Source: Candidatus Heimdallarchaeota archaeon
Lineage (GTDB): Archaea; Asgardarchaeota; Heimdallarchaeia; JABLTI01
Assembly (NCBI GenBank): GCA_030614005.1
Contig: JAUWKS010000021.1
Location: 1-32,000, forward strand
Reading direction: 5' to 3'
DNA length: 32,000 nt
Part shown: piece after piece, positions 7,410-9,960 of the stretch
How the letters are laid out: every line of letters begins with the position of its first letter
Position numbering within the stretch: the first letter of the stretch is position 1
The notes under the pieces: model-generated
Database searches by the model: none
Seen by the model: the letters and a program-made list of their open reading frames with translations, nothing else
Told to the model about the DNA's origin: nothing
Program-made: the position numbers and the translations under genes

Positions 7410-8318
7410 ATGGAAAATGAGTCTCCCTTCTCCAGTAGTAATACAATCAAACTTTCAAACAATGCTCTAAAAGAATTACTTGAACCCATACCAGAGAAAG
7501 AGCTAATAAATAAAATTGCTAATATCAAAGGTTGGAAAACAAAACGAGTGCCATTAACAGCAAATCAATCAAAAAGCGAATATTTCCTACTGCATGTAGG
7601 AGCAAATATATCCCTATCAGTTTTCCGTGAATTACGAATTATTCGAGAACATACTCTAATTTCAAAATTTAAGTGGAATGTATTCAATTGGGATAAAAGT
7701 TTAGTGCGATATTTTCCTGACAAACTAGAGAAGAAAATTGAAGATGTCATTCAAAATTTGACTACTATGGTCAACTTAGATATTTTATTAGTTGATGAAG
7801 AAACAAAAACGATTTTCCTTTTATTAGAGCAATGGCAAAATCAAATTGTATCTGATACCTTTTTATCAAAAGTTGAAACGAATATTCCAAAATATTTTCG
7901 AGCATATATGTGCTTATCGAAAAAAATGCTCTTGGTTGAAAATAAATCAGAGCAAGCTACAAAGGAATTTGTCAAAATCATTGAACAATCCTTTAATGTT
8001 TCAACAGAAAAAATTCGAATCAACGCAATGATTATACGGGAGTTTGTCAAAAATAATCCTGAAAACTTAACAAGATTAGTTATTCGTGTCCCTCAAGAAG
8101 TAGCAGGGTTTGGAGGGTTATCAGAACTAACGTTACAAGGTACTGATGTTATTGTGGGTTCTAAAGGATTAATGGATCGTCATGAAACCTCACCAATAAA
8201 CGTTGGACCTTGGTCTGGAGTTTCAAATGCTAACACTAGTCTCGACGTAGGAAAACCTGCAAAAGTTTCCACAATTGGAGAAGCAATTAAGCTTTTTGAT
8301 CTTTTGAAAGAAATGTGA
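7410..8318 (+). CDS. Hypothetical protein, candidate CENP-N/Chl4-like
   Basis: 302-aa ORF, clearly coding. The CENP-N/Chl4 resemblance is by eye only (see findings). Confidence 0.45.
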   Translation: MENESPFSSSNTIKLSNNALKELLEPIPEKELINKIANIKGWKTKRVPLTANQSKSEYFLLHVGANISLSVFRELRIIREHTLISKFKWNVFNWDKSLVRYFPDKLEKKIEDVIQNLTTMVNLDILLVDEETKTIFLLLEQWQNQIVSDTFLSKVETNIPKYFRAYMCLSKKMLLVENKSEQATKEFVKIIEQSFNVSTEKIRINAMIIREFVKNNPENLTRLVIRVPQEVAGFGGLSELTLQGTDVIVGSKGLMDRHETSPINVGPWSGVSNANTSLDVGKPAKVSTIGEAIKLFDLLKEM

Positions 8319-8484
8319 GGAACTAATTTGTCGAAATAGAAACTCTTTTTTAGTTTAGTGAGAATAATTGCACCAAAAGTAGTATTATTATTTGGTAATA
8401 ACTACATAATGTATAGATTAAAAACATTTAATTATAGAATAGAAACTTATCAAAAATATCTTAGTGTTAAGGTGGCAAATTAAT

Positions 8485-9219
8485 TTGAGCAACAATCTAG
8501 ACAATTTATTAAGCGATATTTACTCTTCAGATGGTCAAAGTCAAGGCGTAAAAGAATTAGCTATGTTAATCAACAATCTATCAAACTTACTTCTAAAATC
8601 AATTAGCCAATTGGAAAGTAGAGTGTTAAAACTTGAACAATCTTCAAGAGGAGGAGCAGTAGCTAGCAGTCCTTTAGCTCCAACTACAACTCCAGCACCC
8701 AGACCAAAAGCGGCATCACCATTTAAACCAGCAACACCAGTAAAGAGAACTCCACCACCACCTCCCCAACAGAGAGCTGCCCCTGTAACAGCCCCTGCAA
8801 AAGGAGATGGACCAAGTTCAGCATCTCAAGCAGCTTCTATGCTAGGTGCAACACTTAAACCAGCACCTAAGAAATCTCCAACTGCAAGCTCAGCAGCAAA
8901 TGGATCAGGCCCTTCATTCCTAACAGGTGTAGTGAATCCAAATGCAAGGCAAGCAGCACCAACATCAACAAGTGGAGGAGTTACCATAGATGCAGCAGCA
9001 CCAACACCAACAAGTGGAGGTATTGCAGGTCCCAGAGGCGGATTTAAAGGAGAGTTAGCTGAAAAACTTGCAAGGAGAAGAGCAAAAGTTCAGCAACAAC
9101 TTGAAGATGACTTTGATGCTCCAGAAGAAGTGATAGTTGAAGAAGAGGGCCCAAGTAGTGAATTAAAAACTGATTTGGAAGATGAACTTCGAAATGCATT
9201 TTCAAAACTAAAAGGTTAA
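8485..9219 (+). CDS. Coiled-coil, Pro/Ala-rich protein with WH2/VASP-FAB-like C-terminal helix and acidic tail
   Basis: AGGTGG (8470-8475) precedes TTG 8485. Contains an N-terminal heptad helix, PPPPP (8752-8766), 'GGFKGELAEKLARRRAKV' (9037-9090), an acidic stretch and a terminal helix. Confidence 0.55.
   Translation: MSNNLDNLLSDIYSSDGQSQGVKELAMLINNLSNLLLKSISQLESRVLKLEQSSRGGAVASSPLAPTTTPAPRPKAASPFKPATPVKRTPPPPPQQRAAPVTAPAKGDGPSSASQAASMLGATLKPAPKKSPTASSAANGSGPSFLTGVVNPNARQAAPTSTSGGVTIDAAAPTPTSGGIAGPRGGFKGELAEKLARRRAKVQQQLEDDFDAPEEVIVEEEGPSSELKTDLEDELRNAFSKLKG
8953..9021 (+). repeat. Short intragenic direct repeat (AAPT[S/P]TSGG x2)
   Basis: gcagcaccaacatcaacaagtggagg at 8953 and gcagcaccaacaccaacaagtggagg at 8995 differ at one base. 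Confidence 0.75.
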
Positions 9220-9228
9220 AGATATCTG

Positions 9229-9960
9229 ATGAAGCAAAAAAAAGTTATTTGTTTGATAAGTGATGGGTTAGATTCACCTGTCGCAACTTTTCTTCTTGAA
9301 CAAAAAAGCCTACATGTAATAGGCATTCATTTTAATAATCAACCTTTTGTGGGAAAAGCAAAACACGTGAAAAGCAATGTGCAACCTTCAGAAGATCCTA
9401 TACCTAGTAAGCTACTTTTTTCTCGGCAAATAGAACCAATTGCATACAAATTAGTACATGCTTTTCAAAGTCAAAAATCATTTCAACTCTATATTGTACC
9501 ACATGGCGAAGATTTAGCCGAAATAATCAAGACTTCCGGAGATGAAAAAATAACTTGTATTCTCTGTAAACGATTGATGTTAAAAAAAGCCGAACATTTC
9601 GCCAATCAAGTGGGAGCTACTTTGATTGCTACCGGGGATATTTTAGGAGAACAAGCAAGTCAAACTATTGATACGCTAAAACTTATCGAGAGTTCACTTT
9701 CAAATACAAGACTAATTCGACCAAATATTGGTTTAAATAAAGAGGAAGTGATAGCCATTTCTAGAAAGATAGGAACATATCAACATTCTGAATTAGCCGC
9801 TAAGTTCACTTGCACAGCTGTTCCAACAAAACCATCTACAAAAGCAGCAGATGAAAGAATTGCCTTAGCTGAGGCAAAATTGAATTTTGATAAAATGATT
9901 GAGAAAAGCTGGGCAAGAGCAACAATGATAACCATTTCTGAATCTAGTTCGCAAAATTAG
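9229..9960 (+). CDS. ThiI-family PP-loop sulfurtransferase domain lacking THUMP
   Basis: Motifs 'LISDGLDSPVA', 'CILCKRLM', 'TGDILGEQASQT' and 'RPNIGLNKEEVIAISRKIGTY'. No NFLD/THUMP N-terminus. Confidence 0.8.
   Translation: MKQKKVICLISDGLDSPVATFLLEQKSLHVIGIHFNNQPFVGKAKHVKSNVQPSEDPIPSKLLFSRQIEPIAYKLVHAFQSQKSFQLYIVPHGEDLAEIIKTSGDEKITCILCKRLMLKKAEHFANQVGATLIATGDILGEQASQTIDTLKLIESSLSNTRLIRPNIGLNKEEVIAISRKIGTYQHSELAAKFTCTAVPTKPSTKAADERIALAEAKLNFDKMIEKSWARATMITISESSSQN

Follow-up and report, generated by a model that had tools for sequence, protein, structure and literature searches.

A proline-rich coiled-coil protein of a Heimdallarchaeote, the long form of an unannotated pan-Asgard family, as a candidate EVH2-like actin binder

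A 32,000-nucleotide stretch of Candidatus Heimdallarchaeota archaeon DNA (contig JAUWKS010000021.1; here called the window; G+C content, ~32%) carries on its forward strand an open reading frame (ORF) at positions 8485 to 9219 that starts with TTG, ends with TAA (9217 to 9219) and encodes a product of 244 amino acids, P0001. Profile and motif comparisons place P0001 in a pan-Asgard family that is conserved, unannotated and new as a family, and of which it represents the long form seen in the Heimdall lineage. Our best reading of its function, which is a tentative one, is that P0001 is a mostly disordered, probably oligomeric actin binder of the EVH2 type that would act via short helical motifs. 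This interpretation is partly supported by the conserved motif architecture and by motif statistics, and P0001 is in our view a good candidate, as yet unproven, for an Asgard actin regulator other than the profilins and gelsolins named in the literature cited here.

The pattern of conservation indicates that the gene is real and under selection. Among 5.8 billion proteins searched, we found 42 relatives with 49 to 99% identity to P0001; all come from metagenome-assembled genomes, those with labels being labelled Heimdallarchaeota or Asgard, and none has a Pfam domain. We aligned 30 of these homologs, which represent the GTDB family of the window itself (f1). The majority-residue frequency was 0.83 to 0.94 in the motif blocks versus 0.38 to 0.67 in the linkers, which span 2 to 3 times as many alignment columns as residues owing to insertions and deletions. 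In 30/30 aligned orthologs, a polyproline tract is followed by a block resembling the G-actin-binding (GAB) motif of VASP and then by a helix resembling its F-actin-binding (FAB) motif. Invariant residues include P72, P74, S78, P79 and F80 in the proline-rich motif TPAPxPKAASPF (within f1), A116, A117, M119, L120, G121 and L124 in the GAB-like block, P143, F145, L146 and V150 in SGPSFLTGVV, and D209 in the acidic stretch, where F210 is conserved in at least 90% of sequences, f3 (the sister family of f1) included. The initial annotation had set conservation of the LARRR-bearing helix in orthologs as a test in advance, and the helix came through it, with 10 residues (G185, G186, F187, E190, L191, A192, E193, K194, L195 and R198) invariant in the 30 sequences.

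That annotation had also read the protein as an N-terminal heptad helix, a proline-rich linker, an acidic stretch and a final helix, quoting PPPPP, GGFKGELAEKLARRRAKV, EDDFDAPEEVIVEEE and LKTDLEDELRNAFSKLKG as its motifs. All of these motifs are present, and the layout agrees with an AlphaFold2 (AF2) model of P0001 made from a 30-sequence alignment (predicted template modeling score [pTM], 0.23), in which helices at residues 2 to 14, 18 to 55, 113 to 119, 187 to 210 and 224 to 243 are separated by disorder (predicted local distance difference test [pLDDT], <50). The central region is a Pro/Ala/Ser/Thr-rich linker, corresponding to the central proline-rich region of Ena/VASP proteins. A 134-amino-acid short form of the family, modeled from a 46-sequence alignment (pTM, 0.39), has helices at residues 2 to 13, 17 to 75 (pLDDT up to 98) and 112 to 133. 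Fold searches with both models returned only long single coiled-coil helices (Z of 5 to 6), including DMPK, tropomyosin, myosin rod and ATP synthase b dimerization segments; taken with the heptad pattern, these matches suggest that the N-terminal helix probably oligomerizes. We take the C-terminal helices to be free motifs because no fold match joins them to the N-terminal helix. A split helical bundle was considered and found unsupported, as the C-terminal helices are not packed on the N-terminal helix and no match with a low root mean square deviation joins them.

Strong matches to the f1 profile occurred only within the GTDB family to which the window belongs (in 10 of its 11 other genomes), and weak ones led to f3, whose proteins are 280 to 360 amino acids long. 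The f3 proteins consist, in order, of an N-terminal helix, Ala/Pro-rich repeats (GAPNLSAAP), two LKK-type motifs, a basic helix (MVLNMEVKDALAKRKSRSKK), an acidic DDFxP and a terminal helix (LQGELRNAFSSLLESD). The GAPNLSAAP repeats stand in tandem, 3 to 5 of them, in the linkers of the f3 long forms L020:2496-3428 (+), L021:2786-3691 (-) and P0164, and none occurs in f1. Two still weaker matches were a 156-amino-acid protein and a 477-amino-acid Arf-like GTPase, both of which share only the N-terminal helix, the Pro-rich linker and the C-terminal helix. A profile of the N-terminal helix (A6), which matches the source genome, G000, at G000:C67:8485-8658 (1.0e-24), was found in 156 of the 399 genomes of the phylum and 57 of its 85 genera, almost always in one copy each, and 20 of the loci that it identified were retrieved for comparison. 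Frames are 135 to 200 amino acids long in most lineages, 250 to 300 in f1, ~275 to 340 in f3 (complete frames; 26 of 30 genomes) and 406 to 477 in fusions.

The short form begins with MAEEFxxxL and a 60-residue helix, continues with a Pro-rich linker (often containing PPPP, also in other Asgard lineages) and carries at its extreme end the motif (A/P)NPxS[LI]Rxx[ILM]xxELKxLFxK[RK][RK]. Across the phylum the E and L of this motif are invariant and the R, K, L and F are conserved in at least 90% of sequences; the short-form ends, among them LRGAIMGELKELFSKRKKI and ELKALFSKLRRTE, form an amphipathic helix with a polybasic run. The members thus have in common a long coiled-coil helix at the N terminus, a linker rich in Pro and, toward the C terminus, the motif [IL]RxxΦxxELKxLFxK+R+, and it is on the N-terminal-helix profile, the short forms and the shared C-terminal motif that we place P0001 as a long form. 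The C-terminal helix of P0001 itself is orthologous to the ELKxLFxK motif that ends the other Asgard forms, but its polybasic tail has been lost. A profile of 16 short forms, searched against the 5.8 billion proteins, returned 69 clusters, each named one of which is a "hypothetical protein"; the named clusters are from Jord-, Loki-/Prometh-, Hod-, Frey- and Helarchaeota, with one weak match labelled Bathyarchaeota. None of the 69 is labelled eukaryotic or has a Pfam domain, bar one stray precomputed PF01813 entry. A full-length f1-plus-f3 profile found 17 proteins among 1.84 billion representatives, all of them family members. The closest protein-atlas clusters are unnamed Asgard proteins with scores of 0.85 to 0.87, which are leads only, and we found no description of the family in the papers searched on Asgard archaea with VASP, WH2, EVH2 or polyproline.

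The number of motifs seems to have grown repeatedly in Heimdallarchaeia. A 432-amino-acid protein of a further family, f2 (G010, L073:1467-2765 [+]), has several motif copies (MSQMQELKNAFSG, SEIMGVLSRRRDRK and VDLQSRLKGAFKDKKK) and a Lys/Pro/Ala-rich tail. The entire cassette of helix, PPPP and ELKxLF motif also forms the C terminus of Arf-like GTPases from four or more genera (G141, G149, G167 and G279/G280).

The likeness to VASP is most pronounced in the basic helix upstream of the acidic stretch, which on motif comparison repeats, inside the protein, the motif that ends the short forms across Asgard archaea. For a position matrix we used only the C termini of the 16 short forms, with no f1, f3 or VASP sequence among them, and we scored all 1,233,820 windows of the open frames of the source genome against it. 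The top window was GPRGGFKGELAEKLARRRAK of P0001, with 18.5 bits, and the runner-up had 14.3 bits. The internal helix of f3 reached 20.6 bits and the terminal helix of P0001 11.1 bits, a score that 6 genome windows attain. Human VASP FAB scored 15.06 bits on the same matrix, which was matched by 1 of the 1,233,820 genome windows, P0001's own. When the FAB peptide was shuffled 20,000 times (mean, -9.3; standard deviation, 4.9), a fraction of 3.5e-4 of the shuffles reached this score, and the reversed peptide scored -12.5. The matrix scores therefore imply that the likeness to VASP FAB belongs to the family consensus (h-M-x-E-h-x-x-h-h-[SA]-+-R-+-K) and not to one sequence.

In the FAB register, the P0001 helix reads GGFKGELAEKLARRRAK. 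Aligned on LARRR, VASP and P0001 have in common GG at -10/-9, a hydrophobic residue at -8, E at -5, a hydrophobic residue at -4 and LARRR itself, a resemblance to Ena/VASP FAB that we see at the level of the motif only; the FAB sequence given in the initial annotation proved to be correct (human VASP residues 259 to 278; PMC10340426). LARRR and GGhxxEhxxxLA+++ each occur once in the 1.19 million residues of the source genome's open frames, and a regular-expression search of that genome found no other protein ending in the same helix. Three other proteins of the source genome have comparable ends, which score weakly on the short-form matrix. In a 318-amino-acid protein (G000:C4:91497-92453 [-], L043), a transmembrane helix at the N terminus is combined with a helical domain and ~130 Pro-rich residues ending in GDGDGQSISGLRMEMLRELARLKKFMSEETRE; its tail has the h-xx-E-h-xxx-LAR register and scores only 5.0 bits on the short-form matrix. 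An Arf-like GTPase (G000:C110:59244-60533 [-]) and a Rab/Ras-like GTPase (G000:C29:16572-17627 [-]) have long Pro-rich extensions at the C terminus with basic amphipathic helices as their ends, SDLMTELKMRLHNRGK and RFSFLDRLNAERKRLK, respectively.

Between the polyproline tract and the FAB-like helix, in the same position as in VASP, lies a conserved block that the initial annotation had missed, AASMLGxTLKKAP. With the register set on the Leu (LRKV in VASP versus LKKA), the two share A at -8 and -7, I/M at -5, G at -3, L at 0, R/K at +1 and K at +2, and 7 of 12 positions agree with the VASP GAB sequence, which we took from PDB 2pbd chain V. The short AF2 helix at residues 113 to 119 falls in this block and has low pLDDT. 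The f3 proteins have two GAB/WH2-like motifs, the first being DLMKAASGLTKAPEQ and the second, of a more canonical LKKV type, SAIQDVKAGLKKVDQDEHRKER, with the variants LTKVDPDE and LKKINPDE. Some f3 proteins thus read LKKV or LKKI, and IQDVKAGLKKVDQDE and IQDVKAGLKKVDQDEHRKER are LKKV-bearing motif sequences. No Pfam thymosin match was found in any member examined, and what we take to be the ELM regular expression for WH2 fails on all of the motifs described here by one hydrophobic position.

In the mechanism that we propose, the N-terminal helix of 55 to 60 residues would form a coiled coil and so make the protein multivalent, while the PPPPP linker would recruit profilin-actin. The AASMLGxTLKKAP block would hold an actin monomer, as a weak WH2 or GAB motif does, and the GGFxGELAEKLARRR helix and the terminal ELRNAFSKLKG would bind filaments in the manner of VASP FAB. 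The combined outcome would be the bundling, tethering or faster elongation of filaments. We infer, rather than show, that the protein oligomerizes, binds each of these partners and acts on actin. The near-invariance of ELKxLF across the phylum speaks for a specific protein partner that is itself highly conserved. Actin would qualify: Asgard actins are 77 to 98% identical to one another.

Several observations weigh against an EVH2-like actin binder. In ungapped BLOSUM62 scans of the 5,821 frames of the source genome, the P0001 frame ranked 8th with the human FAB 20-mer, 24th with a GAB 21-mer and 184th with a GAB 17-mer, and so the likeness of P0001 to any single human motif is within proteome chance; the first-stage scan also spanned very many windows, so that one chance likeness of this kind may have turned up. 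The WH2 signature of Leu-basic-basic-Thr/Val is replaced by LKPA in P0001 and by LKKA in the f1 consensus. Neither Pfam WH2 (PF02205) nor Pfam VASP_tetra was matched at E values of up to 10 in P0001, 30 f1 proteins and 3 f3 proteins, with the limit for WH2 that HMMER filters drop most weak matches. In these proteins and the 16 short forms, the only Pfam matches were sub-threshold coiled-coil ones (Lzipper-MIP1, CCDC53, HSBP1, DUF7310 and DUF6400). A scan with the VASP tetramerization sequence (PDB 1use) ranked the P0001 frame 1,342nd to 3,266th of 5,821, showing no likeness to that region, and the coiled coil of P0001 is N-terminal, at the opposite end from that of VASP. EVH1 was not found either, P0001 having no Pfam domain and an N terminus that is a single long helix. 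A family-profile search of PDB sequences returned no VASP or WH2 chain, a PDB sequence search with the f3 WH2 region returned nothing relevant, and profile searches of 1.84 and 5.8 billion proteins found Asgard hypothetical proteins only and no eukaryotic homology. Moreover, the short forms carry only the terminal motif and end polybasic, and a FAB-like helix that copies the motif at the end of Arf-like GTPases fits a membrane anchor equally well. Given the lack of Pfam and PDB matches, the LKPA sequence, the missing EVH1 and the coiled coil at the other end, P0001 is not a member of the Ena/VASP or WH2 families as these are defined by their sequences and would at most be an analogue in function, or else a relative that is very remote or convergent.

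The alternative that fares best, although we think it somewhat unlikely, is that P0001 is an oligomeric, disordered adaptor whose ELKxLF, PKAASPF, SGPSFLTG and DDFxxP motifs recruit proteins other than actin (e.g., GTPase effectors, ESCRT/Vps4 or division proteins), with the likeness to VASP being a coincidence. The failure of profile methods to detect homology to actin regulators and the chance level of the single-motif similarities fit such a scaffold, as do the several conserved motifs that have no counterpart in VASP and a gene neighborhood that differs between families and gives no pointer to actin. A coincidence is harder to reconcile with the score that VASP FAB attains on the family matrix, which is improbable by chance, and with independent GAB/WH2-like motifs in the expected order behind polyproline. 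As regards Vps4, whose MIT domain binds the MIM1 consensus (D/E)xxLxxRLxxL(K/R), this consensus by eye fits the pan-Asgard ELKxLFxK+ in no register; the f1 terminal helix agrees with it at 4 of 5 positions, with Ala in place of Arg, again by eye only.

In a second alternative, which we judge unlikely, the C-terminal motif would be a membrane-targeting sequence on a flexible Pro-rich spacer, the coiled coil would oligomerize, the likeness to VASP FAB would be convergent and the family would anchor or space something at the membrane. In MinD, FtsA and small GTPases, a C-terminal membrane-targeting amphipathic helix or anchor follows a flexible linker, and the family motif resembles these in being a basic-ended amphipathic helix at the extreme C terminus behind such a linker. 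The K/R-rich ends of the short forms are of this kind; the whole cassette lies at the C terminus of Arf-like GTPases, just where eukaryotic small GTPases have a flexible region and a membrane anchor; and similar basic helices end other Pro-rich proteins of the source genome, two GTPases included. The membrane-targeting helices of MinD and FtsA, however, keep their amphipathicity rather than their sequence and are without acidic residues, whereas the family motif is strongly conserved in sequence, with an invariant Glu and Leu in ELK and with K, L and F conserved in at least 90% of sequences across the phylum. In the f1 and f3 long forms, in addition, the terminal copy no longer has a basic tail; it either carries a net acidic charge or precedes an acidic tail. 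A similar helix also ends a source-genome protein that already spans the membrane with a helix at its N terminus, where a second anchor would be redundant.

We consider it very improbable that P0001 is a WASP/WAVE-like nucleation-promoting factor, in which the WH2-like block, an amphipathic Arg helix and an acidic stretch with an aromatic residue would form a V-C-A module activating actin-related proteins, since the order of polyproline, LKK motif, helix LAEKLARRRQKV and EDDFDAP...EEE with its conserved DDF and the presence of two divergent actin-related proteins (C74 and C82) in the genome are offset by the absence of any Trp in the acidic region or elsewhere in P0001 (the initial annotation had rightly noted that the Trp of the Arp2/3-binding acidic motif is lacking), by the absence of the acidic part from the short forms and by the failure to find ARPC4 and ARPC2 in the source genome, which at 90% completeness is an incomplete assembly in which such an absence is not proof. 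A likeness of P0001 segments to the C and A regions of WASP is presumed. Of the VASP/WASP-like layout originally proposed, the VASP side is upheld by the conserved layout and the FAB statistics, while no Pfam WH2 or VASP_tetra match and no EVH1 back it, and the WASP side is weakened by the missing ARPC4 and ARPC2.

Profilin and actin, which the initial annotation had noted to be encoded by Asgard archaea, are found, the former in the source genome and the latter in genomes of the same genus. The source-genome profilin (C57:19871-20254) was not detected by PF00235 and matches 5zza_P at 5e-20, as well as 7pbh, 5zzb and 6yrr, in a PDB search. The source assembly is without canonical actin, its best matches being the two actin-related proteins, with 29 to 30% identity. 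Within the genus, 8 of the 10 other genomes have canonical actin, with 443 to 448 bits, as does the one sister-genus genome; the copy at L027:1492-2631 (-) has 379 amino acids and is ~60% identical to eukaryotic actins. The source genome also encodes a 277-amino-acid protein (G000:C63:26690-27523 [-]) with an N terminus that by eye is MIT-domain-like, PPPPPPPP tracts and a C-terminal domain, which is a Pro-rich candidate adaptor.

The coordinates of the elements described here are collected in Table 1. We prefer the start at 8485 over a GTG at 8464 because the homologs begin at the same residue (MSDNLDNLL...), and the AGGTGG upstream adds support. The AT-rich element further upstream is a putative archaeal promoter element. 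Directly upstream of the gene, at 7410 to 8318 (+), lies a gene for a 302-amino-acid protein that belongs to no Pfam family, adjoins the gene in all f1 genomes (46 to 86% identity) and is absent from f3 and other loci. At 9229 to 9960 (+), 10 nucleotides after the stop codon, begins a gene for a 243-amino-acid ThiI-type PP-loop protein (PF02568, 1.3e-45), which probably has neither a THUMP nor a rhodanese part and may be cotranscribed with the gene studied here. Synteny around the gene is complete within f1, which we attribute to relatedness, and no neighbor is shared with f3 or other lineages, so that the context gives no functional pointer. For the same reason, an operon link to the upstream 302-amino-acid gene or to an SMC-like gene is not supported.

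Table 1. Positions of the P0001 gene, its putative signals and motifs in the window, and loci elsewhere that carry the family cassette
Feature	Coordinates	Strand	Remarks
TATA-box-like AT-rich element TTTAATTATA	8427..8436	+	~50 nt 5' of start codon; seen in sequence
Shine-Dalgarno-like AGGTGG	8470..8475	+	9 nt 5' of TTG start
Complete gene, 244 aa + stop; Heimdall-lineage long form of pan-Asgard family	8485..9219	+	
N-terminal short helix + long heptad helix, residues 1-52	8485..8640	+	Family-defining; conservation 0.91; pLDDT up to 96
Conserved Pro-rich motif TPAPxPKAASPF, residues 69-80	8689..8724	+	Block conservation 0.83
PPPPP tract, residues 90-94; candidate profilin-binding site	8752..8766	+	Conserved as TPPPPP
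WH2/VASP-GAB-like block PSSASQAASMLGATLKPAP, residues 110-128	8812..8868	+	Family consensus GPxSAAEAASMLGVTLKKAP
Conserved SGPSFLTGVV, residues 141-150	8905..8934	+	Aligns with second, LKKV-type WH2-like motif of f3
VASP-FAB-like basic amphipathic helix PRGGFKGELAEKLARRRAKVQQQLEDDF, residues 183-210	9031..9114	+	AF2 helix 187-210, pLDDT ~80
Acidic stretch EDDFDAPEEVIVEEE with conserved DDF, residues 207-221	9103..9147	+	No Trp
C-terminal helix SSELKTDLEDELRNAFSKLKG, residues 224-244	9154..9216	+	Conservation 0.94; AF2 helix 224-243
Arf-like GTPases with cassette, 'ELKDLFAKRKK'-type end	L022:2699-4132, L074:1736-3031, L075:1836-3083, L084:1318-2469	-	
Cassette after HEAT-like region	L072:1874-3094	-	

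The Asgard actin regulators named in the literature that we cite are profilins and gelsolins only (PMC8410842, PMC9433394, bioRxiv 10.1101/2025.11.30.690169), a Heimdall profilin binds a VASP polyproline peptide weakly (PMC8410842), and polymerases such as formins and Ena/VASP are listed there as metazoan and amoebozoan machinery. If the family, which is present in most Asgard lineages, does bind actin, it would add a third class to the Asgard actin regulators, and none of a free-standing WH2/FAB type would have preceded it; it would also bear on the origin of the eukaryotic elongation logic that combines proline-rich and WH2 elements. Actin binding would further suggest that Arf-like GTPases are linked directly to actin; an Arf GTPase, which may or may not be a cassette-bearing one, coprecipitates with Lokiactin (bioRxiv 10.1101/2025.11.30.690169). 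The fullest version of the proposal, in which the family is a phylum-wide, single-copy actin assembly or bundling factor, the Heimdall lineages nearest to eukaryotes added WH2-like motifs to it, the proline-rich plus WH2/FAB logic is pre-eukaryotic and the cassette couples Arf-like GTPases to actin, strikes us as unlikely. Even if the actin reading fails, this is a conserved, unannotated pan-Asgard family whose sharply conserved C-terminal peptide must have a conserved partner.

Of the known systems, Ena/VASP EVH2 is the one on which our preferred reading of P0001 as an actin binder is modeled. In both, a Pro-rich region precedes a weak WH2-like motif, a putative one in P0001, and then a basic helix, GG-h-x-x-E-h-x-x-x-LARRR, with disorder between the motifs, and multivalency would come from a coiled coil in another part of the chain. 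In human VASP, GAB occupies residues 223 to 239, FAB residues 259 to 278 and the tetramerization region residues 343 to 380 (PMC10340426). The spacing between GAB and FAB is ~57 residues in P0001 versus ~20 in VASP, and P0001 has an extra terminal helix. With the WASP-family WH2 module, P0001 shares polyproline upstream of a helix and an LKK motif, and the f3 motif IQDVKAGLKKVDQDE carries the signature of Leu, two basic residues and Val that is quoted for WH2 (PMC9433394). P0001 differs from WH2 in that its helix is Ala-rich, with M119 and L120 as its only large hydrophobic residues, and from WASP in that it has no Trp-containing acidic tail. Within the Asgard archaea, the two-domain gelsolins have an internal LKKT-type WH2-like motif that lies on actin by crystallography (PMC9433394; bioRxiv 10.1101/2025.11.30.690169). 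The gelsolin and the f1/f3 motifs are of the same LKK[T/V] type, and those of the gelsolins are the only WH2-like elements described in the Asgard literature cited here. Whereas the gelsolin motifs link folded gelsolin domains, those of P0001 and f3 stand free in a disordered coiled-coil protein with polyproline and no gelsolin domain.

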